This document shows, one piece after another, positions 45,286 to 63,900 of a stretch of 64,000 nt of DNA. Position 1 is the first letter of the stretch. Each line of letters begins with the position of its first letter. The position numbers were made by a program, and so were the translations under genes. The stretch lies in the NCBI GenBank assembly GCA_022897995.1, contig GCA_022897995.1_4763.1, one strand, 5' to 3'. The stretch is from a phage. Below the pieces are notes generated by a model. It was given only the letters and a program-made list of their open reading frames with translations. It was not told where the DNA came from and made no database searches.

Positions 45286-45316
45286 CCCCGAAATTTTTTC
45301 GGGGTTTTTTGTTTTT
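45286..45316 (+). terminator. intrinsic terminator
   Basis: CCCCGAAA-TTT-TTTCGGGG hairpin plus T-run. Confidence 0.7.
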
Positions 45317-45321
45317 ATGTG

Positions 45322-45350
45322 TTGACAACCATAAACGACTATAGCATAAT
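45322..45350 (+). promoter_or_regulatory. sigma70-type early promoter (PeSL-like cassette)
   Basis: TTGACA 45322-45327, 17-bp spacer, CATAAT 45345-45350; conserved leader ..CATCGAAACGAAACAC..AGGAGAATCAAAATG. Confidence 0.65.
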
Positions 45351-45387
45351 GCACACATCGAAACGAAACACACTTAGGAGAATCAAA

Positions 45388-45765
45388 ATGATGATGATGT
45401 TTAAAGATAAATTCGAATGTCACTACACCCGTAACTTTGACTTAGTATCCCGCTACTACATTCATAAAGAAACTGGCACGCAAGTAGTTCTTGAATCTCA
45501 CAGCGAAGTAGGATTCGATTCAACAAAAGTAGCAATTAGTGCTCGCTTCTGGGATAACGGCAAATTTGCTTATGTTGCTTGGAACGACGACGAAAATGTA
45601 ATTACAGTAGCTTTCGGTGATGACTACTACACTAAAAAGACTTTCGATAGCAAGCCATCAAATGAATACCTGAAAGCGTATGTTCAGCACATGTTCCAAC
45701 GTGTTCTGACCGGAATGGAAATCAATGTCATGAAAGACATTGTAGACGAAGTAAAATATTCTTAA
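45388..45765 (+). CDS. hypothetical protein (125 aa)
   Basis: AGGAG RBS then ATG 45388 (ORF track starts 45319). Confidence 0.55.
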   Translation: MMMMFKDKFECHYTRNFDLVSRYYIHKETGTQVVLESHSEVGFDSTKVAISARFWDNGKFAYVAWNDDENVITVAFGDDYYTKKTFDSKPSNEYLKAYVQHMFQRVLTGMEINVMKDIVDEVKYS

Positions 45766-45772
45766 AAAATAG

Positions 45773-45801
45773 TTGACAACATGAAACGGGGGTAGTAAGA
45801 T
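45773..45801 (+). promoter_or_regulatory. sigma70-type early promoter with spacer hairpin (PeSL-like)
   Basis: TTGACA 45773-45778, TAAGAT 45796-45801; inverted repeat GGGGGTA..TACCCCC 45788-45807. Confidence 0.55.
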
Positions 45802-45832
45802 ACCCCCACAAACAGACGAAAGGAGAATCAAG

Positions 45833-45991
45833 ATGAAATTTATCGGTAAAACTTTTATGTTCGTAGCTGGTACTCTGTTTACTGCAACTCTGTTAGCTGG
45901 TGGCTTAGATATCTTTACTGCCTTTGAAACTTTCGGGTATACTGTAGCATCGGGTGCTCTCTTCGGATTGGGTTTAGCGATTAGCAAATAA
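45833..45991 (+). CDS. small membrane protein (52 aa)
   Basis: AGGAG RBS then ATG 45833; hydrophobic MKFIGKTFMFVAGTLFTATLLAGG..; below ORF-track size cutoff. Confidence 0.45.
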   Translation: MKFIGKTFMFVAGTLFTATLLAGGLDIFTAFETFGYTVASGALFGLGLAISK

Positions 45992-46000
45992 GGTGATAAT

Positions 46001-46204
46001 ATGGAATTGGATATGGTTAAAGCAAAATTTATGGGTAAGGATAAGAAAGGTAAAACATTTGTTATTAATAGAACATTGTTTCGATCTGACCTTAAGTGGG
46101 TAACACAACAATTTGCGGAAGTCAACGAGGCGGTAGTGACCTGCTTTGTTGGTGATAAGAAAGTTTTTGAAATTGACCGTCGTGGGGTGTCTAATGATCG
46201 CTAA
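46001..46204 (+). CDS. hypothetical protein (67 aa)
   Basis: AAGGTG RBS then ATG 46001. Confidence 0.5.
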   Translation: MELDMVKAKFMGKDKKGKTFVINRTLFRSDLKWVTQQFAEVNEAVVTCFVGDKKVFEIDRRGVSNDR

Positions 46205-46391
46205 ACTGTTTAGCAATACTTTGTTTCTGATTGCATTTGTTTTCTTTCTGTGTCTGATCATCGGTGTGATTGCAGTCGGTAGTTATTCCGGTATTACAAT
46301 AGATGATTTTTGTATGTTGGTTTTCTTTTCAAGTGTTCCTACACTCCTGATCGCTGTATGTGGTGCTTTTAGATGGATCTGTGATCTATGA
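46194..46391 (+). CDS. small membrane protein (65 aa)
   Basis: GTGGGGTG RBS then ATG 46194 overlapping upstream stop; two predicted TM helices. Confidence 0.45.
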   Translation: MIAKLFSNTLFLIAFVFFLCLIIGVIAVGSYSGITIDDFCMLVFFSSVPTLLIAVCGAFRWICDL

Positions 46392-46494
46392 CTGAACAGG
46401 AACGAATGATGTTGATAGGTGGACCGGAGTTCACTAAATTTGATGCAATTCTTATTGCGTTGGGGTTTCTTATGATCTGTTGTATGGTGGCGCT

Positions 46495-46719
46495 ATGAGT
46501 AGCATAAAATATTTTGCTTTCTTGTGTTTTATGATGTTCTTTACATTCCTTGCATGTGTTTTCTTTACATGGCTTGCTCATGTTGATAATGCAACCGGAC
46601 CGTTTTACTTCTTCTGTGTATTGTCTGTGTTGACTGGTGCTCTTGTTACGTGGATGATTCGAGATTGTTACGGAATGTATAAGTTTGAAAAGACTCGACC
46701 GAAATGGGGCAAACGATGA
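46495..46719 (+). CDS. small membrane protein (74 aa)
   Basis: ATG 46495 after GGTGG; hydrophobic; ORF track starts TTG 46480. Confidence 0.45.
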   Translation: MSSIKYFAFLCFMMFFTFLACVFFTWLAHVDNATGPFYFFCVLSVLTGALVTWMIRDCYGMYKFEKTRPKWGKR

Positions 46720-46898
46720 AATTATTTGCGTGGCTAATTATTTTAAATGTAATTATTAAGACTGTTCTCGCTGGTTTACTGATGATACATAGCACGGAAC
46801 CAGAAGAAGCATTAACGTATTGTGTTGCTTATGTGTTGGGATTCTTGCTTACTGCGTGGATGTGTGATGAATATCGAAGAATTGAGGTAAAACCATGA
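46716..46898 (+). CDS. small membrane protein (60 aa)
   Basis: ATG 46716 (ORF track starts 46704); hydrophobic. Confidence 0.4.
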   Translation: MKLFAWLIILNVIIKTVLAGLLMIHSTEPEEALTYCVAYVLGFLLTAWMCDEYRRIEVKP

Positions 46899-47113
46899 AA
46901 ATGACCTTTTATATCTTAGCAAGTATCATGCTTGTGATCTCTTCTGCCTTATTTGCATTTCTTACCGTTTGGGGGATCTGCACTGACGCGAAACCGTGGG
47001 ATATAGTAGAAAATACGGTTATGTTTATTATCAGTGTCATGTGTCTTTTTGATGCATTTAACTCTATCAAGGAAGAAGATCAAAAACGTCGCGAGAGAAA
47101 GCGATATAAATAA
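46895..47113 (+). CDS. small membrane protein (72 aa)
   Basis: GAGGT RBS then ATG 46895; hydrophobic N-terminal two thirds. Confidence 0.5.
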   Translation: MKMTFYILASIMLVISSALFAFLTVWGICTDAKPWDIVENTVMFIISVMCLFDAFNSIKEEDQKRRERKRYK

Positions 47114-47261
47114 TAGTGAACTAAAGACAGCGCGGTTAGAATGATTTGGACGTCACCTAGCCGCATTTATTACAGCGTATGGGGTGATCCGGTACGCTAA
47201 AGCATTCACTTGCTAGGCCGCTAGCAGGTTGGAGACAAGGAAGATTCGCTACCTTCCCTAT

Positions 47262-47288
47262 AAGCCACTCTTCGGAGTGGCTTTTTTA
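47262..47288 (+). terminator. intrinsic terminator
   Basis: AAGCCACTC-TTCG-GAGTGGCTT hairpin plus T6. Confidence 0.7.
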
Positions 47289-47313
47289 TTGCCTAAATTT
47301 TTTAAAAAAGTTG

Positions 47314-47342
47314 TTGACACCAGATCACGCCTATAGCATAAT
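47314..47342 (+). promoter_or_regulatory. sigma70-type early promoter (PeSL-like)
   Basis: TTGACA 47314-47319, 17-bp spacer, CATAAT 47337-47342; conserved leader CCATCGAAACGAAACACAC. Confidence 0.65.
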
Positions 47343-47388
47343 ACACCCATCGAAACGAAACACACTTTCTAACTAGGAGAATCAAATT

Positions 47389-47574
47389 ATGGCACGTCGC
47401 ATCACTAAAGCACTGAAAGCAGTAAGCAAAGAAAACGTAGTAGCTATTCTGGTCATCTGGGGTTATAACGAAGAATCCGCTAAACAGAAAGTTGAAGCAG
47501 GGTTTGAACTGGCAGTAAAAGCAATGCCGAATGATGACTCTGTAGGACTGGCAAACTATATTGCATATTTCTGA
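47389..47574 (+). CDS. hypothetical protein (61 aa)
   Basis: AGGAG RBS then ATG 47389. Confidence 0.5.
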   Translation: MARRITKALKAVSKENVVAILVIWGYNEESAKQKVEAGFELAVKAMPNDDSVGLANYIAYF

Positions 47575-47582
47575 TAAAAGTG

Positions 47583-47611
47583 TTGACAGGGGAGGATAAC
47601 TCCCCTACAAT
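47583..47611 (+). promoter_or_regulatory. sigma70-type early promoter with spacer hairpin (PeSL-like)
   Basis: TTGACA 47583-47588, TACAAT 47606-47611; spacer inverted repeat GGGGAGGATAACTCCCC. Confidence 0.6.
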
Positions 47612-47640
47612 ATAACCATCAACGAAACGGGAGGACCAAA

Positions 47641-47862
47641 ATGATTAACTTTAAAGACGCAGCAAAAGAAATTATCGACTTTGAGCGTGAACTGTTTGAG
47701 ATGGAACCAAATATGAGTAAACTGGAATTGGCTAACCAGATCTGGTGCTCTAAGATGAATCCATCCGACCGCTTAGAAGTTATGAACATCGTCGGAGAAG
47801 TGAAAGGTAGTGCATTAATGAAACTCCGCGCTTGTCACGCTTACATCGCTGATCAACTATAA
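47641..47862 (+). CDS. hypothetical protein (73 aa)
   Basis: GGGAGG RBS then ATG 47641. Confidence 0.5.
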   Translation: MINFKDAAKEIIDFERELFEMEPNMSKLELANQIWCSKMNPSDRLEVMNIVGEVKGSALMKLRACHAYIADQL

Positions 47863-47871
47863 GGGGGTAAT

Positions 47872-48066
47872 ATGGGGGATAAACCATTAGTACAACTAAG
47901 AGTACGCTATAACCAGATTTTAGCATTACTTAAAGCTGAGGGTGTAGATCCATCGGACCGCGAGGCTGTAAAAGCGTGTCTATCTGATACGGTACAACCA
48001 AAACAGAACTATGCTTGCTATATGTACTTTTACAATAGGTTTAATAGACCGTTTGAGTTTGAATAA
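47872..48066 (+). CDS. hypothetical protein (64 aa)
   Basis: AAGGGGG RBS then ATG 47872. Confidence 0.5.
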   Translation: MGDKPLVQLRVRYNQILALLKAEGVDPSDREAVKACLSDTVQPKQNYACYMYFYNRFNRPFEFE

Positions 48067-48088
48067 CGTTAAATGCTGAGGTGAGAAC

Positions 48089-48289
48089 ATGGATATTAAA
48101 GAGCAACTTGTATTAGTTCGAGAGTCTGCGAAAGAGCATGGCATGAGCGAAGAATTTGTTGAATGGTTTATCGATAACAAATTTAATCCAAGCCCAAATT
48201 CGACTTTTAACTATTTGGCTATGTCGATCATGTGGGAAGGTTGGAAAGGCGCGGTAGAAACTGTCCTAGAAATTATGAAAAAAGATTAA
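48089..48289 (+). CDS. hypothetical protein (66 aa)
   Basis: GAGGTGAG RBS then ATG 48089. Confidence 0.5.
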   Translation: MDIKEQLVLVRESAKEHGMSEEFVEWFIDNKFNPSPNSTFNYLAMSIMWEGWKGAVETVLEIMKKD

Positions 48290-48297
48290 AAAAGTTG

Positions 48298-48326
48298 TTG
48301 ACACACGAGAGGGTGTATAGCATAAT
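48298..48326 (+). promoter_or_regulatory. sigma70-type early promoter (PeSL-like)
   Basis: TTGACA 48298-48303, 17-bp spacer, CATAAT 48321-48326. Confidence 0.65.
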
Positions 48327-48360
48327 GCACCCATCGAAACGAGAAGATATGGGAGTCAAA

Positions 48361-48504
48361 ATGCCAATTTTTAAATTACAAGCAATGGGTTGTATTGTTG
48401 GTTTGTTCAAAACAAGAGAGAAGCTAAACAATGCCATTGATAAAATCCTTAAAGATAACCCAGATGCAAAGTCTTCTATACAGGTTTGGATTGTCTGGGA
48501 TTGA
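48361..48504 (+). CDS. hypothetical small protein (47 aa)
   Basis: GGGAG RBS then ATG 48361 (ORF track starts 48232). Confidence 0.4.
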   Translation: MPIFKLQAMGCIVGLFKTREKLNNAIDKILKDNPDAKSSIQVWIVWD

Positions 48505-48606
48505 TACATTAAACTAGAAAATAGCACTTTTTGTTAAAACTTAATGAGGTGGCTAGAGTATAGTTACCTCATCGAAACGAAACACGAACTACTAAGGAGT
48601 ATCAAA

Positions 48607-48933
48607 ATGAAACCAGTATCTGTTAAAGTTATCTTCTCTGAATCTTCTGTATTCGCTAACGCAAACGAAGTATTCCACTTCGAAGACTTCGAGCGTAAAG
48701 CACAGGACGCGGCAGCAAAAGCCTATGAAAGCGAATATGACAAAACTCAAATCGAGGTTACTTTCGAAAACGGCACTACTTACGCTTGCCGCCTTGACTT
48801 GGGTGATCGTCTGTCTGGCTTCCGTCACCATGTAGAGAAGACAATCGCTTTCTCTAAAACCGAAAAAGGAAAACACTACTTTTCTGTATTCGGTACTGAA
48901 AATCTGGATTTCTTGAAAACGGTTTCTTTCTAA
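48607..48933 (+). CDS. hypothetical protein (108 aa)
   Basis: AAGGAG RBS then ATG 48607 (ORF track starts 48544); conserved leader CATCGAAACGAAACAC upstream. Confidence 0.55.
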   Translation: MKPVSVKVIFSESSVFANANEVFHFEDFERKAQDAAAKAYESEYDKTQIEVTFENGTTYACRLDLGDRLSGFRHHVEKTIAFSKTEKGKHYFSVFGTENLDFLKTVSF

Positions 48934-48941
48934 GGTATATT

Positions 48942-49124
48942 ATGAAAAAGATTAATTGGTTAGCGAACATAGGCGCGGTATGCGCCTTTAACATCCTCGG
49001 ATGGATAATGTTACATTTTGATGAGCGAGTTTCAAAATGTGACGGTGTATTGATTCTCGGATCGGCTAGCATATTCATTATGCTGTATGCAATTGCTGTT
49101 GACTTAAGCCGCGAGGATTGTTAA
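48942..49124 (+). CDS. small membrane protein (60 aa)
   Basis: AAGG RBS then ATG 48942; hydrophobic. Confidence 0.45.
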   Translation: MKKINWLANIGAVCAFNILGWIMLHFDERVSKCDGVLILGSASIFIMLYAIAVDLSREDC

Positions 49125-49125
49125 T

Positions 49126-49323
49126 ATGACGCTCAAGAGTATGTTTTTCAACTTCATAGGTGCTTCCATTCTTTCAATGCTATATCTTGTGACTGTATGG
49201 ATGGGCGACTATGAATTAACTAACGATGAAAATCTGACCGTGTTTACTGTCTTGACGATGATCATTTACACTGTCTTTCTTGTCTTGGATTTTATTGTGT
49301 TTCTTTACAAAACGGTGACTTGA
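49126..49323 (+). CDS. small membrane protein (65 aa)
   Basis: GAGGA RBS then ATG 49126; two predicted TM helices. Confidence 0.45.
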   Translation: MTLKSMFFNFIGASILSMLYLVTVWMGDYELTNDENLTVFTVLTMIIYTVFLVLDFIVFLYKTVT

Positions 49324-49520
49324 TGACGATTAGGAAAAATGATATTGGTTTTGTTGCGGGTATCGCTAGCGTCTTTACTGTTGTTATTTTGCTAATGCTT
49401 TTACCCGGTGTATTCTCTGACCAGATTGAATTGTATGTAGCTTTTATCTGTTGCATTTATACTTGGCTTGCAATGTTTGTGATTAGTCTAATTATGCAAT
49501 TCGTCGTTAACAAATTTTAG
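49323..49520 (+). CDS. small membrane protein (65 aa)
   Basis: ATG 49323 after GGTGA (ORF track starts TTG 49320); hydrophobic. Confidence 0.45.
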   Translation: MTIRKNDIGFVAGIASVFTVVILLMLLPGVFSDQIELYVAFICCIYTWLAMFVISLIMQFVVNKF

Positions 49521-49541
49521 ATTTAATGTGAGGATTATATT

Positions 49542-49862: not shown

Positions 49863-50133
49863 CAAGGAAGACCGTCTGATTTATGCGCTGGCGGTTATCC
49901 TTGAAAAAGAATTACCGGATCTTGAGGTAGTTTTTACTGACAGACCAGTAGGCCAACGTTACGGAGGATATGATAGCCTAGTTTATCCATCCTATAGCCT
50001 TGAAATGTGGGTAGAAGATTTTAAAAACTTGGCTGATGCATCTAAACCGCTTTATTTGTGGGATGTTGAGTATAATTGCGATCCCACTTGGCCTGGTATT
50101 AATGTTTATGCGTCTATGACTTTAAAGGTGTGA
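49801..50133 (+). CDS. hypothetical protein (start uncertain)
   Basis: ORF-track ORF overlapping the upstream gene by ~60 nt; no clear RBS; true start may be downstream. Confidence 0.3.
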   Translation: MWRCLLVNQKNQLTTVLRQRNKEDRLIYALAVILEKELPDLEVVFTDRPVGQRYGGYDSLVYPSYSLEMWVEDFKNLADASKPLYLWDVEYNCDPTWPGINVYASMTLKV

Positions 50134-51550: not shown

Positions 51551-51611
51551 TTATTAACCATCAACGGGGAGACAATCTAAGGATCTCTCCCCGTTCACTG
51601 GAGACTTGACA

Positions 51612-52649: not shown

Positions 52650-52659
52650 TTTTTCATCA

Positions 52660-52688
52660 AGCCAATCCGAAAAGGGTTGGCTTTTTCG
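52660..52688 (+). terminator. intrinsic terminator
   Basis: AGCCAATCC-GAAAA-GGGTTGGCT hairpin plus T5. Confidence 0.65.
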
Positions 52689-52735
52689 TTTTATGATGAT
52701 ATGATGCAATCTCTTAATCAACTGAGGGTTTAATT

Positions 52736-53892: not shown

Positions 53893-53921
53893 TTGACAGC
53901 ATGAAACGGGGGTAGTAATAT
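53893..53921 (+). promoter_or_regulatory. sigma70-type early promoter with spacer hairpin (PeSL-like)
   Basis: TTGACA 53893-53898, TAATAT 53916-53921; inverted repeat GGGGGTAGTAATATACCCCC. Confidence 0.6.
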
Positions 53922-53949
53922 ACCCCCATCGAAACAAAGGAGTATTAAA

Positions 53950-54288
53950 ATGAGTGTTAAAGAAGTATTTGTTTATACTGACTATGACAGGTGCGCCTAT
54001 CTCACTGCTGGAAAACTTTACCGTTGTGAGATTATTCATGGTACGCTAGGTCGAATTATGTGCGATCCGATTACAAAATTGTGGAAAAACAATCCTAGTG
54101 AGCGAGAAACTATTATTAACCTAGATTCAGACGGTTGTTCACATTTGGACTATAGAAAATGGCATATCGTGACACATGATGCTTATGGTATTCATCTTGC
54201 TACTAAAGAATTGACTATTGACAAGTTCAAGTTTAAAGAAATCCCGTTTGTATACTGGCTTCGCAATTTGTTTAAGAAAGGAGAATAA
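53950..54288 (+). CDS. CSHL-motif paralog 3 with N-terminal extension (112 aa)
   Basis: AAGGAG RBS; motif ..IINLDSDGCSHLDYRKWHIV. Confidence 0.5.
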   Translation: MSVKEVFVYTDYDRCAYLTAGKLYRCEIIHGTLGRIMCDPITKLWKNNPSERETIINLDSDGCSHLDYRKWHIVTHDAYGIHLATKELTIDKFKFKEIPFVYWLRNLFKKGE

Positions 54289-54289: not shown

Positions 54290-54712
54290 ATGGAAACAAT
54301 TAATGTACACGTTCGCCGTAGCAAGCTGCGCAGATTCTTCGAAGCTGAAATGCGTAAGACTAACGCACAAATCAAAGAAAAGTGCTTGAATAATGGTTAC
54401 GGTGAGTATATTTTCATTCGCTTTAGTCCGCATATGATCGACCGTCTAACCGACCGCCATATCGATGAACATAAGACAATGGAACTATTCAATAAGGTAG
54501 AAACTCGTTTGCCGGAGATATTCGACTTCCTGAAAATGGAAGACCGACCTAATCGATTAGAAATTACTGACGGTAACATGTGGATCGGGATGACAGTAGA
54601 TCTAATCGAAGACGGTAAACCGTATCACGGTCTATGCTGCCGAATGATTATAGAGAATCCAAAACGACTGGCGGGTAAAATGTCGGCTGTTGTTTTGAAA
54701 GTGGACCAATAA
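54290..54712 (+). CDS. hypothetical protein (140 aa)
   Basis: AGGAGAA RBS then ATG 54290 (ORF track starts 54218). Confidence 0.5.
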   Translation: METINVHVRRSKLRRFFEAEMRKTNAQIKEKCLNNGYGEYIFIRFSPHMIDRLTDRHIDEHKTMELFNKVETRLPEIFDFLKMEDRPNRLEITDGNMWIGMTVDLIEDGKPYHGLCCRMIIENPKRLAGKMSAVVLKVDQ

Positions 54713-54734
54713 TGGAGATTGGTTAAAATAATGC

Positions 54735-54763
54735 TTGACTTTCTGGTGATAGGGCTATATTAT
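54735..54763 (+). promoter_or_regulatory. sigma70-type promoter (possible MotA-box TGCTT at 54732-54736)
   Basis: TTGACT 54735-54740, 17-bp spacer, TATTAT 54758-54763. Confidence 0.5.
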
Positions 54764-54797
54764 GGAATCAGAAAGTTAAGCCAAACAGGAGAAATTA

Positions 54798-55388
54798 ATG
54801 TTAAAAGTTCTAAAAGCGATAGTATTGAGTCTGTCACTAGCCGTTGGTGCTACACACGCATCGACTAGCGCACCGATCAAAAAAGCGCCGATAGACAACT
54901 TTACAGCACACCAACTAGATAATTTACATTTCGCCTATCAATACGGCGAGCAATTCGAGAAAAGCGGTAAGTTGAAAAAGGACCATCCGAATATTCGCTA
55001 TAACGGAAAGGGTTTAGGTCACATCCTGGCGGGTATCGCATGGCAAGAATCAAGCGCGGGTGCAAACTTAGCACCAAAGAAAAATCATCATGCTTATGGA
55101 TTATTTCAAAATTACCTTAAAACGGTGAAAGCGAAAAATGCAAAGCGCGGTGTTAAAATGAGTGATCGCCAGACTATCAACTTTATCATGAATCGCGAGG
55201 TTTCTGCATTCTACGCGATGGATGAGTTAGCATACTGGCTGGATGTTCGAAACGGTAATATCCGACTCGCGCTGGCTTCTTACAATGCTGGATGGAACTA
55301 TAAAGCCGGTTTAGGTTATGCTGATGACGTATTAAAAAAAGCTAACCATCTAAAGAGTAAAGGCATTCTTAAAACTAAACGCTATTGA
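54798..55388 (+). CDS. secreted lytic transglycosylase-like (SLT/lysozyme-like) protein
   Basis: 196 aa; N-terminal signal peptide MLKVLKAIVLSLSLAVGATHA; catalytic-region motif GIAWQESS and ..SYNAGW..; AGGAG RBS. Confidence 0.55.
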   Translation: MLKVLKAIVLSLSLAVGATHASTSAPIKKAPIDNFTAHQLDNLHFAYQYGEQFEKSGKLKKDHPNIRYNGKGLGHILAGIAWQESSAGANLAPKKNHHAYGLFQNYLKTVKAKNAKRGVKMSDRQTINFIMNREVSAFYAMDELAYWLDVRNGNIRLALASYNAGWNYKAGLGYADDVLKKANHLKSKGILKTKRY

Positions 55389-58284: not shown

Positions 58285-60429
58285 ATGCCAGAAGTAAAAG
58301 AAACTAGCATTAACACAACCATTTGGCTTCCTCATACTTTCGCGTGTTCAATTACTGCCGAATCGGAAGACCCATCTAAGACGAGGAAGGGTTATCATTG
58401 GAAAAAGGATGGTAAATTGGTCACTATGACCGATGCTCCGTCTTTTCCATTGAAGACAGTAAAGGAAGAGGACAAAACAGGCTGGTCTGTTAATGTTCGT
58501 GGGTATGCTCAAGATGACAATGAGTTTACTGGTGATTCTGTTGATATCGGTACGGAAAATTTCACCTTTGAATTGTTTGATAATCCATATGTAGAACATG
58601 TATACCCGCCACGGTCATTTATTGTTGGTGATGAAATAAAGGCAAAGATTGTTTTTCGTAGTCATATCCAGAATAATATTTCTGTAGACCTTTATTACAA
58701 CGATGGTTTGGTTGATTCCATTGATGGTGATCTAGGTTTAGACCATCGTGAATTTAAAATTGCAAAATTTGCGTGGCCTGAATTTTCCGGCACATATCGA
58801 ATGGAATTGAGCGATGAACATGATGATGTAAAATTTGTATATCCTTTCTTTGCTAGTATTGTCGAAAGTAAGGAAGTGTTTAACGTTCAAAAATACGCAC
58901 CTGCTTATTTTACCGTAGAAGATGATGCGCCGAATCAGGCCGAATATACTATTGTCCGCTACCGATTAGAGCGTGGTGATGGTACTTTGGTATATGAATC
59001 TAAAGATAAGACCTTGTATGTAACAAAACATGCTCAAGAGTCTGACGCCGGAGAATATGTTGCTTTTGTGCGTGCATATAAAGTTGTTAATGGTCCTGGG
59101 TCTGGTGAGCAATTCATCGATGGCGATAAACATCGCTTTACGGTAAATGTTAAGGAAAATGAGTTTTTCAGCCATGATTTTAGTGCTGTTGATTTTCGTT
59201 ATCCTTCTGGATCTACTGTAAACCTTGATATGCCAGTGATGCAAGCCGATAGCTCGTGGAACCGCCATTACGGTATGCTTAGTAACAACGTTTACTTTAC
59301 GTGGATGCTTGGCGGTAAGAAACTTCAAAGTAAAAAATATGGTGATGAAGGATACGACCGAATCACCCTATCTGGATTGCAATATGATAACAGCGTTGCG
59401 CTTCAATTGTTGGTTGCTCCTGCCAATCCAGCGGGTGAGCAGGTGATTCCTAACGGTCGTCCACTGTTTTATGACCGTCGTATGCTTGAGATTTATGATA
59501 AAGAGTATGATTATCGTAATATTGAAGTGGGTGAACCGATTGTTCTCAAGATCGTAGATCCTGAACCGCCAGCTAGTGATGATCCTGAACAAACACGAAC
59601 TTTGGTTATCACCAAAAACGACGTTAAAGTAACGGAACTACCGCTAGGCACTAAGGAATATAAGATCACTGACTCCGCTGACCGAGACCATAACGGAATC
59701 TGGGCGCATGAGTATCGTGATAGTCCGAGTAAAGATCCATTTAGTGCACATACCGATTTTGATATTGCTGGTCGCGCAACTTATCATGTTGAAGTTGTGC
59801 CAAATATGGAATTTGATGGTCCTCATCCGGTACAGGTGACGGAAGGGGATACGTTGACTATTGAAGCAACCATGCTTAAACCGCCAGCCTCATATGTTCC
59901 GACTTATGAGTTTAGCAAGAGTGGAGTTAAATTGCCAATTGCTGATGCAAGGACGCCGATTTATCGTAAGGCAAATGTTACCTTAGATGATGCTGGTGTT
60001 TATCGATTTGTTGCATTTGCTGATAAAAACAACAACGAAACTCTAGACCCAGGTGAGATCATCGGCTATACAAAATATGTTCAAGTTGTGGTTAATAAAC
60101 GTCCTGTTCGACCAGATGAACCTAAACCGGAAGTTAAAATTGTTACTCTGTTTAATGATTTTAGTAAAGGCCGATTTAGTCCGTGTCCGTATTGGGTAAT
60201 TGATGAACTTGTCGAACTGATGGAAGATCCGCATGGCTGGATGGGTAAACTTGAAGATGCTGTCTACTATGACTGGCAGATCACTATCTTTAATGAGTTC
60301 TTAAAAGGTAAAGATCTGTATCTTCAAGACTCCTGTAATGGTTATTGGGCTATTGTTCGTCAGAAAGACATGACAATCGAAACTGGTTACGGTCGATTTA
60401 AACACTATCACACAAATGGATTAGAGTAA
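58285..60429 (+). CDS. large Ig-like domain protein with Hoc-like C-terminus (candidate virion surface/decoration protein)
   Basis: 714 aa; AAGGGGG RBS; Ig-like signature DDAGVYRFVAF; C-terminal ..CPYWVIDEL..DSCNGYW.. weakly resembles the Hoc capsid-binding domain. Confidence 0.55.
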   Translation: MPEVKETSINTTIWLPHTFACSITAESEDPSKTRKGYHWKKDGKLVTMTDAPSFPLKTVKEEDKTGWSVNVRGYAQDDNEFTGDSVDIGTENFTFELFDNPYVEHVYPPRSFIVGDEIKAKIVFRSHIQNNISVDLYYNDGLVDSIDGDLGLDHREFKIAKFAWPEFSGTYRMELSDEHDDVKFVYPFFASIVESKEVFNVQKYAPAYFTVEDDAPNQAEYTIVRYRLERGDGTLVYESKDKTLYVTKHAQESDAGEYVAFVRAYKVVNGPGSGEQFIDGDKHRFTVNVKENEFFSHDFSAVDFRYPSGSTVNLDMPVMQADSSWNRHYGMLSNNVYFTWMLGGKKLQSKKYGDEGYDRITLSGLQYDNSVALQLLVAPANPAGEQVIPNGRPLFYDRRMLEIYDKEYDYRNIEVGEPIVLKIVDPEPPASDDPEQTRTLVITKNDVKVTELPLGTKEYKITDSADRDHNGIWAHEYRDSPSKDPFSAHTDFDIAGRATYHVEVVPNMEFDGPHPVQVTEGDTLTIEATMLKPPASYVPTYEFSKSGVKLPIADARTPIYRKANVTLDDAGVYRFVAFADKNNNETLDPGEIIGYTKYVQVVVNKRPVRPDEPKPEVKIVTLFNDFSKGRFSPCPYWVIDELVELMEDPHGWMGKLEDAVYYDWQITIFNEFLKGKDLYLQDSCNGYWAIVRQKDMTIETGYGRFKHYHTNGLE

Positions 60430-60439
60430 AATGTAGTCA

Positions 60440-60466
60440 AAGCCATCCGAAAGGGTGGCTTTTTTA
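60440..60466 (+). terminator. intrinsic terminator
   Basis: AAGCCATCC-GAAA-GGGTGGCTT hairpin plus T6. Confidence 0.7.
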
Positions 60467-60476
60467 TTTTTAGGTG

Positions 60477-60505
60477 TTGACAACCGGACCGTGGTATAGC
60501 ATAAT
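60477..60505 (+). promoter_or_regulatory. sigma70-type early promoter (PeSL-like)
   Basis: TTGACA 60477-60482, 17-bp spacer, CATAAT 60500-60505. Confidence 0.65.
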
Positions 60506-60534
60506 GCACACATCGACAACAAAGGAGAACCAAA

Positions 60535-60744
60535 ATGATTAATCCAGTAGCCGCAGCACTTGCTTCCGAAGAAACTTTGAAGTATATGGTAGAACATGCA
60601 GCAAAGAAAGGAGAAATTGTTACTGCCGATGAGATCGTAGAAACCATGCTCCGCGATCCGAAGGGTAACACGGCAAAGTTTTTCGGTGATCATCTTAAGC
60701 TGGCTTACAAAACAATTATGGAGACTGTAAAGAATGCAAAATGA
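60535..60744 (+). CDS. hypothetical protein (69 aa)
   Basis: AAAGGAG RBS then ATG 60535. Confidence 0.5.
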   Translation: MINPVAAALASEETLKYMVEHAAKKGEIVTADEIVETMLRDPKGNTAKFFGDHLKLAYKTIMETVKNAK

Positions 60745-61072
60745 TGTGATTGAAGTTATTATGAATCAATACCGAAACCGGATTTGGTCTGGACGTATCA
60801 AAGAAGAAAAGGCAAAACGGATCATCGAAAAATATGCTGAAAAGACTAAGCAAGCGCCAACGGCTAACAGAGTTATGATTCTTAAATGTCTGGTGCTTTC
60901 CGGTGACGATATGCCGATTGATGCAGAGACAGCCACCGATTTTCATAAGACCTATCGCCAGTGTGATGTAATTTTTACTTCTGGCTTCGGTAGTTATGAC
61001 TCTATTATGTGGAATTTAATGCACCTTGACGAAACGATCTGGGATGTACTTTCAGAGGAGGGCTACAATTGA
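60734..61072 (+). CDS. hypothetical protein (112 aa)
   Basis: ATG 60734 overlapping upstream gene end. Confidence 0.5.
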   Translation: MQNDVIEVIMNQYRNRIWSGRIKEEKAKRIIEKYAEKTKQAPTANRVMILKCLVLSGDDMPIDAETATDFHKTYRQCDVIFTSGFGSYDSIMWNLMHLDETIWDVLSEEGYN

Positions 61073-61419
61073 ACATTGATATTCAGCGATTAATTGATCA
61101 TCTTCACGCTGGAATACCTTATCATGGCGACGTTACCCGCGATATTCTTGATGTGTTGGAATATACCCAGCAAGTGATCAACGAAAAGCAAGCATTAGAA
61201 TCACGGATCGACGAGGCAATAGGAAACATTGCAACCGAGGATGAATTAGATAATCACTTTGGACCTGTTCTCGATGCTCTTATGGCTGCGCGTGATACTA
61301 AGCTAAAACAGGATAAACAAGAATTTATCCTTGATGGTTTAGCTCGTTATCACAATGCAATTGATATTATGAATAACCAGCATGATTATGCTATTAGTGT
61401 TTTAAGGGGTATGGCATGA
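61069..61419 (+). CDS. hypothetical protein (116 aa), TTG start
   Basis: GAGGAGGG RBS 8 nt before TTG 61069 overlapping upstream stop. Confidence 0.45.
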   Translation: MNIDIQRLIDHLHAGIPYHGDVTRDILDVLEYTQQVINEKQALESRIDEAIGNIATEDELDNHFGPVLDALMAARDTKLKQDKQEFILDGLARYHNAIDIMNNQHDYAISVLRGMA

Positions 61420-61700
61420 AAGACACAAACGAATTTAACGGCATTCAAGTAAGCCCAAATTTTATTGTTCCATCACTGGTGACTAAATTGAATGGTCATA
61501 TGGTCGCTTTGTCTTCCACACCGCCAGAATCAGGAAAGTTTATTACTATCGTAGTTTATGCGGGGCAAATTTTCTCTCATGATTGCTGCATGAAAAACGG
61601 TGAACTGATGGTTGCAAATTATGACTACGGCGACCTTGAGTGGGAAGTTTTAGGACTGGCTAAAGGTGCTGAAATTCTGGGCTATATTCGATTAATTTAA
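61416..61700 (+). CDS. hypothetical protein (94 aa)
   Basis: AAGGGG RBS then ATG 61416 overlapping upstream stop. Confidence 0.5.
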   Translation: MKDTNEFNGIQVSPNFIVPSLVTKLNGHMVALSSTPPESGKFITIVVYAGQIFSHDCCMKNGELMVANYDYGDLEWEVLGLAKGAEILGYIRLI

Positions 61701-61718
61701 AATTTTTCTTAGAAAGTG

Positions 61719-61747
61719 TTGACAGCGATCCGGTGTTATTGCATAAT
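61719..61747 (+). promoter_or_regulatory. sigma70-type early promoter (PeSL-like)
   Basis: TTGACA 61719-61724, 17-bp spacer, CATAAT 61742-61747. Confidence 0.65.
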
Positions 61748-61787
61748 ACACCCATCGAAACGAGATGCACTTTCTAGGAGAATCAAA

Positions 61788-62009
61788 ATGGCAACTGTTA
61801 AAATTATCAAATCTTCCGCTGGCTTCGGTTTCATGCGTGGCGCTAAGTACCCGATGATTATTGAAAACGTTGCCATCGAAGATGGTATGGCTAAAGTGAC
61901 CAGCCGTCAATTGTTCGAAGCTGGTGTTAAAACTGCCGAATCATGGGCGCTTCGCTATCCTAACAAAACTTGGTCCTTCTTCCTGAATGGTGAGGCTGAG
62001 ATCATTTAA
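61788..62009 (+). CDS. hypothetical protein (73 aa)
   Basis: AGGAG RBS then ATG 61788 (ORF track starts 61716). Confidence 0.5.
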   Translation: MATVKIIKSSAGFGFMRGAKYPMIIENVAIEDGMAKVTSRQLFEAGVKTAESWALRYPNKTWSFFLNGEAEII

Positions 62010-62012
62010 TTG

Positions 62013-62040
62013 TTGACACGGGGAGAGATCCCCGTATAAT
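62013..62040 (+). promoter_or_regulatory. sigma70-type early promoter with spacer hairpin (PeSL-like)
   Basis: TTGACA 62013-62018, TATAAT 62035-62040; spacer inverted repeat CGGGGAGAGATCCCCG. Confidence 0.65.
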
Positions 62041-62070
62041 GATAGCCATACCAACTAAGGAGAATCAAAG

Positions 62071-62361
62071 ATGATCACTGAACAATTAATCAAGCATATC
62101 AGAAACATCATCTGGGATCTGTCTGGCGATAAAGAGGAACAAGCTGAACGCATTTTAGCTAAACTCTATAAACGCCGTGACCGTGGAGTATCAGCAAAGA
62201 AAGTAGAAACTTTCAAAGAATTGTCTTTCATCGAAGCTAAAAAGGATGGATTAATTTATCAGTTGACAGATGGTTACTGGTGCTATGATAATACTCGCTA
62301 TGACACCGCGACTGATGCATTAAAAGCATGTAATGACCATCTTCGCAAAACTACCATTTGA
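62071..62361 (+). CDS. hypothetical protein (96 aa)
   Basis: AAGGAG RBS then ATG 62071. Confidence 0.5.
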   Translation: MITEQLIKHIRNIIWDLSGDKEEQAERILAKLYKRRDRGVSAKKVETFKELSFIEAKKDGLIYQLTDGYWCYDNTRYDTATDALKACNDHLRKTTI

Positions 62362-62371
62362 GGATTATATT

Positions 62372-62569
62372 ATGAAGGTTAAAACATTAGCTGATATGGA
62401 TGAGATTGAGACTCAAGTACATGCGGCGTTAGTCGGTTATGAGTTTGGTCGATTCCTTAATAAGTTCCATGACTATAAATGCTTAAATTGTGGTGCTCAT
62501 AACGTAATTGGTGCTTGTTGTCTTAATCCTGTTATAGTACCATATAAAAGAAATGAAACAGAAGAGTGA
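62372..62569 (+). CDS. hypothetical protein with CxxC (65 aa)
   Basis: GAGGA RBS then ATG 62372 (ORF track starts 62333); ..CLNCGAHNVIGACC.. Confidence 0.45.
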   Translation: MKVKTLADMDEIETQVHAALVGYEFGRFLNKFHDYKCLNCGAHNVIGACCLNPVIVPYKRNETEE

Positions 62570-62579
62570 GGAATATAGA

Positions 62580-62798
62580 ATGAAGGCCAACGAATCAGTA
62601 ATACCGCCACCTTTCGGTCGCATTCCTATAGTTATCACAAAGTCAAATACTTCTTTCGTGAAAGTTGGAGAGAAAACGCATATTTCAACCATGCAAGACG
62701 GTACACAATACCTATGGTCTGATTTCTGCCAGCGTTATGAGCGTTTATCATGGGCTACCCGCTTATGGTGTGTTGAGTATAAGGAGATCACAAAATGA
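62580..62798 (+). CDS. hypothetical protein (72 aa)
   Basis: GAGTGAGGA RBS then ATG 62580 (ORF track starts 62553). Confidence 0.45.
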   Translation: MKANESVIPPPFGRIPIVITKSNTSFVKVGEKTHISTMQDGTQYLWSDFCQRYERLSWATRLWCVEYKEITK

Positions 62799-63049
62799 TC
62801 ATCGGATACATCCCATATTCAACAACAAAACATATTGTCGGATTCGAAGACATAGAAAAGTCTTGCTTTCCTCTCAAGGTTGAAGTAGACTTTATTACAG
62901 CGAACGGATGGGCTTACGTCACTGTTTCAGAAATGAAGCGCGTAGGCTGGGAAAATTGCATACACCTACCGCATCTTATCCTAGATGTTCGCGCTGGTGA
63001 AATTGATATTGATGGAAAGATCTATGGAGACAATGTAAATGAAAATTGA
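62795..63049 (+). CDS. hypothetical protein (84 aa)
   Basis: AAGGAG RBS then ATG 62795. Confidence 0.5.
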   Translation: MIIGYIPYSTTKHIVGFEDIEKSCFPLKVEVDFITANGWAYVTVSEMKRVGWENCIHLPHLILDVRAGEIDIDGKIYGDNVNEN

Positions 63050-63296
63050 AATTATTGACCGTGCTGGGTATACTTTCATGGAAAAAGTTAAACTTCCTAT
63101 CATTGTTGAAGGTCGCCCCTTATGTCAAGGATTCATGATAACGACCAGAGAACTACGAAATGCTGGTGTTCCCGTTGAACCATGTTTCGGTGATGATTAT
63201 GAATGGTGTTTCAGTGGTTTTCGTGCACATAAAGCAAAAGAAGCACGAAAAGCATCATGGTTTGCTCGCTTTAATAACTGGTTGAGGAAACTGTGA
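63039..63296 (+). CDS. hypothetical protein (85 aa)
   Basis: GGAGA RBS then ATG 63039. Confidence 0.5.
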   Translation: MKIEIIDRAGYTFMEKVKLPIIVEGRPLCQGFMITTRELRNAGVPVEPCFGDDYEWCFSGFRAHKAKEARKASWFARFNNWLRKL

Positions 63297-63634
63297 TGTG
63301 TGAAATGAAAATGTATATGATTCTAAGTGATTCAGGATACACCTTCTTACAAGGTATTGATAGTGACTCGCGTCCTATTGTTTATGGCAAGGAACATCCG
63401 ACCATTCCTGGGATCATTCTTGTTACGACAACATCACTTCGTAGAGTGTCAGAAAGTCCATACCTACAAAACGTAAAGCAAGACCGAGAATGGGCTTTCG
63501 AGTTAGGTAAAGACCTTGTTGAGTGGGTAAACTGTGAAGACAAGAACCAACGAAATCATGAAAAGAAGATTGCACGACTTGAACATAGAAGAAAACTTGA
63601 TGAAATCAAAAACAGGATTCTACAATCAATGTAA
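63293..63634 (+). CDS. hypothetical protein (113 aa; start GTG 63293 or ATG 63296)
   Basis: GAGGAAA RBS upstream. Confidence 0.5.
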   Translation: MMCEMKMYMILSDSGYTFLQGIDSDSRPIVYGKEHPTIPGIILVTTTSLRRVSESPYLQNVKQDREWAFELGKDLVEWVNCEDKNQRNHEKKIARLEHRRKLDEIKNRILQSM

Positions 63635-63863
63635 CAGGGTATTCATTGTCCTGATGGATTCAGAAAACTATCCCGAACTCGCTAAAACGCGTTTTCCGTG
63701 CGTTGTTGAAGCATATAAGGCAAATGCACCGGATAAACGGTTTATCGTGTTAGCGAGCGAAATAGAGCGATTAGGGGCTATTCCTAAACATGATGAATAT
63801 GTGTTTCGTAAGGTGTACTCTGTACATAATTTTGATGTAGTAGTTAATTCACTAAAATCATAA
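63600..63863 (+). CDS. hypothetical protein (start uncertain)
   Basis: ORF-track ORF 63534-63863 overlaps the upstream gene; ATG 63600 is the first start that limits the overlap. Confidence 0.3.
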   Translation: MKSKTGFYNQCNRVFIVLMDSENYPELAKTRFPCVVEAYKANAPDKRFIVLASEIERLGAIPKHDEYVFRKVYSVHNFDVVVNSLKS

Positions 63864-63871
63864 AAAAGTTG

Positions 63872-63900
63872 TTGACAGGGGATCAGTGATCCCCTATACT
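63872..63900 (+). promoter_or_regulatory. sigma70-type early promoter with spacer hairpin (PeSL-like)
   Basis: TTGACA 63872-63877, TATACT 63895-63900; spacer inverted repeat GGGGATCAGTGATCCCC. Confidence 0.6.

Follow-up and report, generated by a model that had tools for sequence, protein, structure and literature searches.

Promoter-early stem-loop (PeSL) units of an RB49-like Krischvirus and a T1-type promoter unit in one small gene cassette

The repeated promoter-hairpin units of the window, i.e., the whole stretch of 64,000 nucleotides of phage DNA analysed here, are very probably (approx. 0.9) the promoter-early stem-loop (PeSL) cassettes of a Krischvirus, read here as operon starts, insulators and units of recombination. 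The phage is an RB49-like T4-type coliphage with approx. 95% identity to RB49 and Phi1. Such units are a known feature, already published as PeSLs in RB49-like T4-type phages: Arbiol et al. 2010 (Genome Biol Evol 2:140, PMC2839356) defined and tested them in RB49 and Phi1, describing an AT-rich stretch, a -35, a -10, a variably placed G-run/C-run stem-loop, a Shine-Dalgarno sequence and a start codon. The interpretation, which had been proposed in an earlier note on this DNA, is supported because the phage belongs to the RB49 group, the units occupy RB49/Phi1 positions and their anatomy fits the published definition; moreover, two indels in the window have their junctions within units, in the stretch from the -10 to the Shine-Dalgarno sequence. 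What is new is one detail: in the window phage, a promoter unit typical of unrelated T1-like phages is borne by a small gene cassette.

All twelve promoters listed in the earlier note (Table 1) are near-consensus sigma-70 promoters oriented toward the downstream gene. The pattern TTGACA-N16-18-YATAAT has 11 matches, compared with 0.11 expected by chance, and no shuffle reached 11; two further units (48521-48609 and 54735) bring the total to 14. The full consensus as earlier written is matched throughout by approx. three units, whereas the remaining units match it partially. The leader CATCGAAACGAAACAC is exact in three units and near-exact in two, shortened forms (CATCGAAAC(G)A) occur in most of the others, and the proposed common ribosome binding site (RBS), (A)AGGAG(A/T)ATCAAAATG, was indeed found across units. 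A GGAG RBS precedes every unit-adjacent gene (12/12, compared with 14/43 internal genes; Fisher p = 2e-5). However, the claim that units flank almost every small gene is incorrect: only 12 of the approx. 55 genes in the 45.3-64 kb interval have a unit directly 5' of them, and the operons headed by units comprise 1 to approx. 22 genes. For example, unit 45773 heads an operon of approx. seven genes, dmd among them, and regB (at 54290) lies downstream of unit 53893. In the GenBank record of GEC-3S, promoters are annotated at matching sites, including that of unit 54735, and several have an adjacent terminator. The RB49 early-promoter consensus is consistent with 5'-end mapping (PMC1524935).

Table 1. 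Promoter-hairpin units and associated features of the window
Feature	Coordinates	Strand	Promoter	In earlier list	Details
PeSL downstream of hoc	2247..2353	+	2283	yes	hairpin 2247-2266 + T-run; TTGACA 2283; TATAAT 2305-2310; start codon 2351
Early-type three-gene cassette inside late module	29535..30977	-			ORFs 30977-30720 (85 aa), 30732-30400 (110 aa), 30400-29561 (279-aa SAM methyltransferase); closing terminator hairpin 29556-29535
PeSL heading methyltransferase cassette	30975..31074	-	31034-31007	yes	hairpin 31074-31049 + T-run; TTGACA 31034-31029; TATAAT 31012-31007; RBS GGAGGATAAAT; start codon 30977; between baseplate genes 8 and 9
PeSL	45285..45391	+	45322	yes	terminator hairpin 45285-45305; TTGACA 45322; CATAAT 45345-45350; leader CATCGAAACGAAACAC 45356-45371; RBS GGAGAATCAAA 45377; start codon 45389
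PeSL	45773..45835	+	45773	yes	stem-loop GGGGGTAGTAAGATACCCCC 45788-45807 over -10, z -3.45; start codon 45833
PeSL	47262..47391	+	47314	yes	terminator hairpin 47262-47283; TTGACA 47314; CATAAT; exact leader 47348-47363; start codon 47389
PeSL	47583..47643	+	47583	yes	spacer palindrome GGGGAGGATAACTCCCC 47589-47605, z -2.97; start codon 47641
Resident PeSL promoter	48298..48363	+	48298	yes	TTGACA 48298; CATAAT; stem-loop 48311-48332 over -10; joined via CATCGAAACGA to inserted ORFan, start codon 48361
227-bp ORFan cassette	48343..48569	+			47-aa ORF 48361-48504
T1-type promoter-stem-loop unit	48521..48609	+	48521	no	21-nt-repeat box ATAGCACTTTTTGTTAAAA 48521-48539; TATAGT 48559-48564; stem-loop 48545-48571 straddling -10, z -3.41; leader CATCGAAACGAAACAC 48570-48585; start codon 48607
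G-run/C-run stem-loop without promoter	51565..51593	+		no	CGGGGAGA...TCTCCCCG; downstream of endolysin gene
Terminator hairpin, then weak promoter	52659..52705	+		no	TTGGCT-N17-TATGAT; ahead of nrdC.11
PeSL	53893..53952	+	53893	yes	stem-loop GGGGGTAGTAATATACCCCC 53908-53927 over -10; start codon 53950
PeSL variant	54733..54800	+	54735	no	TTGACT 54735; TATTAT; 15-bp stem 54733-54781, z -4.06; start codon 54798 (vs.1)
PeSL	60439..60537	+	60477	yes	terminator hairpin 60439-60462; TTGACA 60477; CATAAT; z -2.84; start codon 60535
PeSL	61719..61790	+	61719	yes	weak stem 61732-61752 over -10, z -1.12; start codon 61788
PeSL	62013..62073	+	62013	yes	perfect promoter hexamers; spacer palindrome CGGGGAGAGATCCCCG 62019-62034; start codon 62071
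PeSL	63872..63945	+	63872	yes	spacer palindrome GGGGATCAGTGATCCCC 63878-63894; leader CATCAAAACGAAACAC; start codon 63943

The four palindromes quoted earlier are present in units 47583, 53893, 62013 and 63872, and unit 45773 has a near-copy. The hairpin had been placed in the spacer; in only 5 of the 14 units does a G-run/C-run stem lie within the spacer or across the -10, and the others are placed differently. A terminator-type hairpin with a T-run lies upstream of the -35 in five units (2283, 45322, 47314, 60477 and 31034 on the minus strand), a hairpin lies over or directly after the -10 in three (48298, 48537 and 61719, the last of them weak), and in unit 54735 the stem encloses the entire promoter. 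For most units, hairpin z-scores range between -2.3 and -4.1. Alignment of seven relatives revealed that the units are kept at corresponding positions in RB49, Phi1 and five other Krischvirus genomes; the stems are near-invariant, the changes being found in loops and non-stem spacer.

The units had also been regarded as recombination hot spots, a status that is relative. Two cassettes do have their junctions in units, but when these early 19 kb of eight genomes (the window phage and its seven relatives) are compared, only two of approx. eight real structural differences have PeSL junctions. The others involve HNH homing endonucleases, a tandem duplication, the loss of a paralogue by recombination, a deletion within a gene and a 714-aa gene deleted twice independently; in addition, homologous mosaicism is even, i.e., the nearest relative switches every few hundred bp without tracking the units. 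Such a pattern would suit ordinary early promoters and terminators whose similarity reflects selection for transcription and translation strength, recombination at them being incidental and of minor importance for plasticity, particularly as T4-type recombination requires merely short homology anywhere (discussion in PMC2839356). Nonetheless, this explanation is rather unlikely: sigma-70 does not need the leader CATCGAAACGAAACAC, yet the leader is repeated and serves as a crossover site, the junctions of two cassettes fall exactly inside units, and mini-circles with PeSL junctions have been sequenced in RB49 and Phi1, with one crossover placed in the interval from the -10 to the Shine-Dalgarno sequence (PMC2839356). 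A gp38 adhesin cassette, whose right junction lies in that same interval, is found in RB49, Phi1, Brandy, JK32 and GEC-3S where the window phage has unit 62013. Furthermore, the spacer of unit 53893 is near-identical to that of unit 45773 in the window phage and Brandy, and not in five other relatives, which suggests that gene conversion may have occurred between copies.

In terms of the PeSL reading, it is plausible that the methyltransferase cassette in the late module is a product of PeSL shuffling, as had been proposed. It occupies the same place in 5/5 relatives with loci covering the region (RB49, Phi1, Brandy, G2248 and JK32), and past it lies a late-promoter motif for gene 9, TATAAATA (approx. 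29520-29513).

The ORFan cassette occurs only in the window phage and Skers, and the site is a single hybrid unit in six of the seven aligned relatives. Both junctions lie in the repeated leader CATCGAAACGA and, judged from them, the cassette recombined within this common leader. It carries the T1-type unit, the start codon of which belongs to the first gene of an operon of approx. 22 genes. The box agrees at all specified positions with aaATAGCACnnnTTGnTAAAA, the 21/22-nt direct repeat found between genes in the T1-like phages (Drexlerviridae) T1, Stevie (PMC4319613) and TLS (PMC11447400). In the window, too, TATAGT follows at the canonical offset of 19 nt and a stem-loop straddles the -10. 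However, T1-like genomes carry 16-21 copies each, compared with the single copy in this myovirus, where, unlike in T1-like phages, the box sits in the promoter position of a cassette bounded by PeSLs. The function of the repeat is listed as unknown in the T1 literature, in which a stoperator, an enhancer or an UP element has been suggested. The layout is similar to that of the PmSLs of T4-like phages, in which an upstream activator box and a -10 replace the -35.

It is reasonable to assume that each PeSL unit acts as a strong promoter at which the host sigma-70 RNA polymerase initiates an early transcript with a predicted 5' end (AUCGAAAC...) approx. 7 nt past the -10; for published PeSLs, promoter activity reached approx. 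13,000 Miller units and stem-loop termination was comparable to that of rrnB T1 (PMC2839356). Because the stem-loop is upstream of the predicted start, it would occur only in transcripts reading in from the preceding operon, in which it might cause termination or attenuation, or protect the 3' end, and thereby insulate early operons from one another. The spacer/-10 hairpins have no U-tract downstream and thus show no evident sign of canonical intrinsic termination; we infer a terminator function for these hairpins. The stem-loops might instead act mainly as barriers by which the upstream mRNA is stabilised at its 3' end, or mark RNA-processing sites, without stopping RNA polymerase, which the missing U-tracts would fit, as would the hairpins directly after stop codons (e.g., 62009/62019) and the read-through of hairpin 48545-48571 that the 48607 operon would need if the T1-type promoter were weak here. 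This seems improbable given the strong drop in downstream expression that a stem-loop, of whichever hairpin class, caused in the published reporter (PMC2839356), and the canonical terminators in five units. Least probable is that the inverted repeats are DNA operators or cruciform targets of a phage protein (e.g., a repressor of early promoters, a recombination factor or endonuclease VII) rather than RNA terminators: Arbiol et al. do speculate on protein binding to GGGG...CCCC, and the missing U-tracts and the near-invariance of stems among corresponding copies in relatives are in keeping with it, but stem sequence, length and position vary between units, which fits a structural need better than one sequence-specific binder, the arms co-vary in related T1-type units, and in a reporter free of phage proteins a stem-loop was by itself sufficient for termination (PMC2839356).

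For PeSLs as recombination units, the arrangement itself is relevant. Approx. 100 bp of similar sequence in one orientation is repeated about every 0.3-6 kb, and thus crossovers from one unit to another should be possible for the T4-type recombination machinery; these would presumably excise or insert gene cassettes carrying their own promoter and terminator. At the level of translation, the uniform, unstructured A/C-rich leader and the RBS of GGAG followed by A-rich sequence would provide the same strong start for unrelated genes. We also infer that the common RBS might confer the same sensitivity to the RegB endoribonuclease and hence a joint shut-off of unit-led genes: GGAGRAYARAA, the consensus derived in T4 (PMC1702504), is matched with at most one mismatch in 8/14 units, and the site of regB itself is perfect. 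As in the RegB/S1 sites of T4 early mRNAs (Durand et al. 2006, PMC1702504), GGAG lies in the Shine-Dalgarno sequence and is followed by an A-rich tract, whereas most units have C instead of A at position 8; the resemblance is one of sequence only.

Among known systems, the PeSLs of RB49 and Phi1, members of the same genus, are essentially no different: both share the corresponding positions, the near-consensus TTGACA-N17-TATAAT, AT-rich sequence upstream and a GN-loop-CN stem, and in both the units are concentrated in the hyperplastic early regions, a few others being located beside hoc and within the virion module. The window phage adds the 48343-48569 cassette and is without the gp38 cassette. 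Motif discovery, alignment of junctions, reporter assays and PCR for mini-circles have already been published for RB49/Phi1; PMC2839356 mentions neither the RegB-consensus match nor the T1-type unit. The PeSL/PmSL elements of PST/T4 and nt-1/KVP40 (Comeau et al. 2014, PMC4122927) are likewise composites of promoter and stem-loop next to indels, although their promoter consensus and stem sequences differ and they have been described only within T4-like myoviruses. Lambdoid morons and integron gene cassettes are also small accessory genes with their own promoter/terminator or a recurring insertion site; however, PeSLs have neither integrase nor attC, and their mobility is proposed to proceed via homologous recombination of regulatory repeats.

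Two further elements of the early region had been missed earlier (Table 1). The stem-loop without a promoter is located approx. 30 bp downstream of the site at which G2248 and JK32 carry an inserted HNH endonuclease, and the terminator hairpin with the weak promoter adjoins the HNH insertion site of JK32.

Within the flagged region, a 4.8-kb piece matches 75 phage records at up to approx. 95% identity, and its full-length matches belong to the genus Krischvirus (RB49, Phi1, and JSE-like coliphages). Relative to RB49, the window is inverted, its plus strand matching the RB49 minus strand, and its genes run in the order hoc, uvsW/uvsY, baseplate genes 25 to 53, genes 4, 2, 3, 1, and 57, followed by a long run of small early genes that includes dmd, regB, vs, tk, and rI. 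The stretch from 45.3 to 64 kb thus represents one of the "hyperplastic" early regions that mark an RB49-like phage. Neither an Rfam scan at gathering thresholds nor a tRNA scan of the whole window gave a match; the promoter units considered here are not a described RNA family.

The units, each named by a coordinate, are highly non-random. The pattern TTGACA-N16-18-YATAAT has 11 matches in the window, compared with 0.11 expected from shuffles, and a relaxed scan recovered all twelve promoter positions of the earlier note, each intergenic and pointing at a Shine-Dalgarno sequence and a start codon; the palindromes quoted with them are also present. Units 48537 and 54735 had escaped the earlier note, as had a promoter-less G/C stem and a terminator with a weak promoter (see the table). 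In the 14-unit alignment, AT-rich runs such as AAAAAAGTTG or TTTTTAG precede TTGACA, which is perfect in 12 units and reads TTGACT in unit 54735, and the -10 element, with 0-2 mismatches, follows a spacer of 16-17 nt. Folding gives a stem of at least 7 bp in 13 of the 14 units (it is weak in unit 61719), mostly with z-scores of -2.3 to -4.1. All units end in (A)AGGAG... and then ATG, 15-50 nt past the -10 element. Three exact copies of the leader CATCGAAACGAAACAC (45356, 47348, and 48570) and two near-exact ones (61753 and 63906) are present, with shorter versions in most other units, and the predicted 5' end of the transcripts is the A of CATCGAAAC.

Twelve units lie in the 19-kb early region, one after hoc, and one between genes 8 and 9. 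The earlier note described them as flanking almost every small gene; however, when RB49 gene starts are mapped onto the window, a unit directly precedes only 12 of approx. 55 genes between 45.3 and 64 kb, and the units head operons of one to approx. 22 genes each. Similarly, a GGGGA/TCCCC hairpin in the spacer had been presented as a general trait, but a G-run/C-run stem at the spacer or -10 element is found in only five of the 14 units. The observation is real, with the density of the units and the generalisation of the spacer hairpin overstated.

Promoter units and other loci of the window, with the structural differences from relatives that do not involve PeSLs
Feature	Position	Strand	Details
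Unit 2283	2283	+	T-run terminator-type hairpin upstream of -35
Unit 31034	31034-31007	-	T-run terminator-type hairpin upstream of -35
Unit 45322	45322	+	T-run terminator-type hairpin upstream of -35
Unit 47314	47314	+	T-run terminator-type hairpin upstream of -35
Unit 60477	60477	+	T-run terminator-type hairpin upstream of -35
Unit 45773	45773	+	G-run/C-run stem in spacer or over -10
Unit 47583	47583	+	G-run/C-run stem in spacer or over -10
Unit 53893	53893	+	G-run/C-run stem in spacer or over -10
Unit 62013	62013	+	G-run/C-run stem in spacer or over -10
Unit 63872	63872	+	G-run/C-run stem in spacer or over -10
Unit 48298	48298	+	Stem over or just after -10
Unit 48537 (T1-type)	48521-48609	+	Stem over or just after -10
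Unit 61719	61719	+	Stem over or just after -10, weak
Unit 54735	54735		15-bp stem enclosing whole promoter
G/C stem	51565-51593		Promoter-less
Terminator + weak promoter	52659-52705		
ORFan cassette	48343-48569		227 bp; 47-aa ORFan
T1-type box	48521-48539	+	ATAGCACTTTTTGTTAAAA
RegB site	54280	+	Perfect site before regB
RB49 gp38 locus	62009-62047		
HNH homing-endonuclease insertions			Non-PeSL events, two: G2248, JK32
Tandem duplication			Non-PeSL event: JK32
Loss of one of two tandem paralogues	63045		Non-PeSL event
Intragenic deletion	62586		Non-PeSL event
Deletion of 714-aa gene			Non-PeSL event, twice independently: RB49/Skers/GEC-3S; different one in Phi1
Divergent segment	48000-48300		gp55.3-like ORF
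Divergent segment	55800-56100		5' part of tk.4
Insertion	40810-41944		1,135 bp, between head-completion gene 4 and gene 2
Homing-endonuclease ORF	41833-40811	-	340 aa (PHROG 655); own promoter 41925(-)
714-aa ORF	58285-60429	+	Largest in early region
ORF-free stretch	47114-47290	+	177 nt, last gene of 45773 operon to terminator of unit 47314

Both the anatomy and the positions of the units agree with those of the promoter-early-stem-loop (PeSL) cassettes of RB49 and Phi1, as the earlier note had proposed, and the feature is thus already published. According to Arbiol et al. 2010, PeSLs occur in approx. 51 copies per genome; in each, a near-perfect sigma-70 promoter follows an AT-rich stretch, a stem-loop (often GGGG...CCCC) occupies one of five positions, and a Shine-Dalgarno sequence and a start codon complete the unit. 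They cluster in hyperplastic regions, and a few adjoin plastic genes such as hoc (PMC2839356). In that study, promoter activity was shown by lacZ fusions, termination by the stem-loop was comparable to that by rrnB T1, and circular excision products with junctions within units were detected by PCR and sequencing, one crossover lying between the -10 element and the Shine-Dalgarno sequence (PMC2839356). According to Nolan et al. 2006, 5'-end mapping is in agreement with the early-promoter consensus predicted for RB49 (PMC1524935). Most of the checks suggested in the earlier note have therefore already been published for PeSLs, and promoter and terminator activity of the PeSL type can be predicted for the units of the window.

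The 19-kb early region was aligned with those of seven relatives (RB49, Phi1, Brandy, G2248, JK32, Skers, and GEC-3S), and each unit has its counterpart at the corresponding position in them. The stems are almost invariant in the aligned relatives, and changes fall in loops or in non-stem spacer. The GEC-3S record carries annotated promoters at the positions of the units, several with adjacent terminators. As the rediscovery of a published element this adds little, apart from the fact that PeSLs are conserved among the Krischvirus genomes sequenced since the 2010 paper (approx. 60); the alignment here covers eight genomes of the genus.

The claim that the units are recombination hot spots stands only in part. 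Among the gaps of at least 20 bp in the eight-genome alignment, two events have junctions inside units, but these are only two of approx. eight in the region (approx. 25%). The first is the ORFan cassette, which is carried by this phage and Skers (MW748999.1) only, among 50,697 phage records; a search of all phage records for a donor of the 47-aa protein returned no carrier other than Skers. At this site, six of the seven relatives have a single unit, which is composed of the promoter half of window unit 48298 and the leader half of unit 48537. The 11-nt sequence CATCGAAACGA stands at both ends of the insertion, and both junctions fall inside it. Integration of a circle with one ORF and one hybrid unit into a resident unit would be expected to yield this arrangement.

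The second event is the gp38 adhesin cassette of approx. 905 bp, which is present in RB49, Phi1, Brandy, JK32, and GEC-3S and lacking in the window, G2248, and Skers. On the left it is joined at the stop codon of the upstream gene, and on the right between the -10 element and the Shine-Dalgarno sequence of the next unit. The host range of RB49-like phages is determined by the long-tail-fibre adhesin gene gp38 (PMC9569957). This gene does not occupy its RB49 locus in this phage, G2248, or Skers, and neither the whole 64-kb window nor the loci of G2248 and Skers contain a homologue of it. The RB49-type gp38 protein is 75-90% identical to gp38 of Tequatrovirus-like phages. In addition, gene conversion between units 53893 and 45773, 8 kb apart, is suggested because their spacers are nearly identical in the window and Brandy and differ in the five other relatives. 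One apparent event, a 263-bp "insertion" in Skers at window position 50123, was not counted, since an Illumina adapter within it marks it as an assembly artefact; in MW748999.1 it consists of a local duplication joined via the adapter sequence AGATCGGAAGAGCGTCGTGTAG...

Nearest-neighbour identity to the seven relatives in 300-bp windows revealed no recombination breakpoints specific to the units; the mosaic pattern shifts every few hundred base pairs throughout. PeSL-bounded exchange is thus real here, but it accounts for a minority of structural differences. General homologous recombination acts throughout the region, independently of the units. This tempers the published claim for PeSLs. Two segments, in the gp55.3-like ORF and in tk.4, have only 78-82% identity to all seven relatives, compared with 95-99% in their flanks, and are probably allelic replacements from an unsampled lineage.

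On the right-hand side of the ORFan cassette lies unit 48537, which is unlike the other units upstream of its -10 element. A 79-nt query over it matches 1,487 phage records, often three to 12 times per genome; these are mostly 50-kb Drexlerviridae (T1-like), and the others include Klebsiella Slopekvirus. Its box agrees at every specified position with the 21/22-nt direct repeat of T1 (NC_005833.1), TLS, Stevie, and Rtp (0 mismatches to the consensus aaATAGCACnnnTTGnTAAAA) and is the sole exact copy in the window. The box is intergenic, in the direction of the downstream gene, and its first base lies 86 nt ahead of the ATG at 48607; the box-to-start distance in T1 is 70-84 nt (15 boxes for which a ribosome-binding site (RBS) and start codon were found by scan). 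Exactly 19 nt past the box lies TATAGT (48559-48564), as in the canonical T1 arrangement, and the stem is GAGGTGG...TTACCTC. The 19-nt offset and the straddling stem are a regularity derived here from T1 and Stevie rather than a published criterion. Over the whole T1 genome, 16 of 22 boxes have a -10 element at this offset under a loose definition (at least four of six matches, A at position 2, T at position 6), with 11 scoring at least 5/6, and 14 of the 22 precede a hairpin whose strength exceeds the 5th percentile for random T1 segments (Mann-Whitney p = 1.6e-8), usually one that straddles the -10 element.

The stems of T1-type units were further analysed by swapping arms among 26 units from T1, Stevie, a Rogunavirus, a Klebsiella phage, and the window. 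The arms co-vary between copies: native pairs have a mean of -11.6 kcal/mol vs. -6.8 kcal/mol for swapped pairs, a value that 0 of 5,000 permutations reach. Since native arms fold better than swapped ones, the stem itself is under selection. Many T1-type units continue with CATCGA(A/C)AAC and a GGAG-type RBS, as Krischvirus units do. The TTGTTA of unit 48537 was considered as a degenerate -35 element and dropped: both here and in T1, the TTGnTA of the box and the -10 element are 22 nt apart, so that TTGnTA is not a normal -35. The box is more likely to be an UP-like or activator site.

Whereas T1-like phages have 16-21 copies of the repeat per genome, the window has one and the Skers locus one, and no box was found in the loci of RB49, Phi1, Brandy, G2248, JK32, and GEC-3S. 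Unit 48537 is thus best read as a single imported unit and not as a member of a repeat family spread over the phage genome. The most parsimonious explanation is that a crossover in the leader common to both families brought a cassette with a T1-type promoter into a Krischvirus. It should be noted that the small ORFs of T1 and Stevie have no homologue in the window, with no sign of recent exchange of coding sequences, and a Stevie ORF labelled "Phi1 like" is only approx. 40% identical to a Krischvirus ORF, one that lies elsewhere in the genome. The stem, -10 element, and leader of unit 48537 (48544-48585) also match single intergenic sites in 66-kb PB1-like Pseudomonas phages (Pbunavirus) at 84-88% over approx. 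43 nt (e.g., OP310978.1 36078-36120; best E = 3e-5).

PeSLs and T1-type units have three features in common, namely a -10 element straddled or preceded by a selected hairpin, a predicted transcript 5' end AUCGA(A/C)AAC, and an RBS of GGAG followed by an A-rich tract. It is therefore tempting to consider, at a probability of roughly 0.45, that the Krischvirus PeSLs and the Drexlerviridae units with the 21-nt repeat form one cross-family class of promoter-stem-loop cassettes, with the common leader as the crossover point. Gene cassettes could then move through this leader between unrelated phages co-infecting one host, and the T1-type unit, as the right-hand part of a rare ORFan cassette, would be a captured instance. 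Single copies of T1-type units also occur in Slopekvirus and other enterobacterial phages. The role of the 21/22-nt repeat was called unknown in the Stevie announcement (PMC4319613), and the 2024 TLS paper counts its function as an open question for these phages (PMC11447400). If the two families of units are one class, the T1-family repeat would be the upstream half of a promoter cassette, which would answer this question, and, if the principle is general, the leader would be a specific sequence by which genes are exchanged between unrelated virulent phages.

In its sequence, the 3' module of the cassettes resembles a RegB cleavage site. In T4, RegB and ribosomal protein S1 jointly cut early mRNAs inside GGAG motifs that precede an A-rich tract, and the 11-nt RegB/S1 consensus GGAGRAYARAA also fits RB49 sites (PMC1702504). 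GGAG is present in the RBS of 12/12 genes directly after a unit compared with 14/43 internal genes (Fisher p = 2e-5). With this T4-derived consensus and no more than one mismatch, the plus strand of the window has ten matches vs. 2.2 expected; seven are RBSs of units (GGAGAATCAAA), and one is the perfect site before regB. The minus-strand unit 31034 matches as well, which brings the number of units to eight. We infer that the cassette may couple the start of transcription and of translation with later inactivation by RegB, in which case transcription start, translation start, and programmed mRNA shut-off would form one portable unit. The PeSL paper makes no mention of a link to RegB (PMC2839356). 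Both the RegB-like site and the T1-type unit go beyond the PeSL literature, as inferences from sequence.

Between baseplate genes 8 and 9, the window contains a terminator hairpin, a perfect TTGACA-N16-TATAAT promoter, three ORFs, and a second terminator; the last ORF encodes a SAM-dependent methyltransferase (Pfam MTS, Eco57I). Beyond this arrangement lies the late-promoter motif TATAAATA for gene 9. This layout bears out the proposal that an early-type cassette is embedded in the late module. In each of the five relatives with a locus spanning this region, the cassette is present at the same site; its acquisition therefore predates the genus. Homologues with no more than 50% identity at other map positions in other T4-like genera suggest that the cassette is mobile.

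Several other loci of the window deserve mention. The insertion between genes 4 and 2 is found in only three other records (Ec_Makalu_002, PHB13, and Cognac), with at least 99% identity; the remaining 56 records with matches to its flanks lack it. The 714-aa ORF is present in only approx. six of 59 Krischvirus records, with 76-88% nucleotide identity, and the Phi1 "ORFan 84.1" lies within the remnant left by its deletion in that phage. The C-terminal part of the 714-aa protein (190 aa) is similar to the Ig-like end found in Hoc-type head-decoration proteins (PHROG 1149, E = 2e-9; weak PDB hit 9ncf), and the rest of the protein gave no match. Finally, the ORF-free stretch upstream of unit 47314 matches no Rfam family, is approx. 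99% identical in the eight Krischvirus genomes (flanks approx. 95%), and folds into four hairpins and an intrinsic terminator (MFE -63.6 kcal/mol, z = -5.06), which makes it a candidate for a phage small RNA or a structured 3' UTR.
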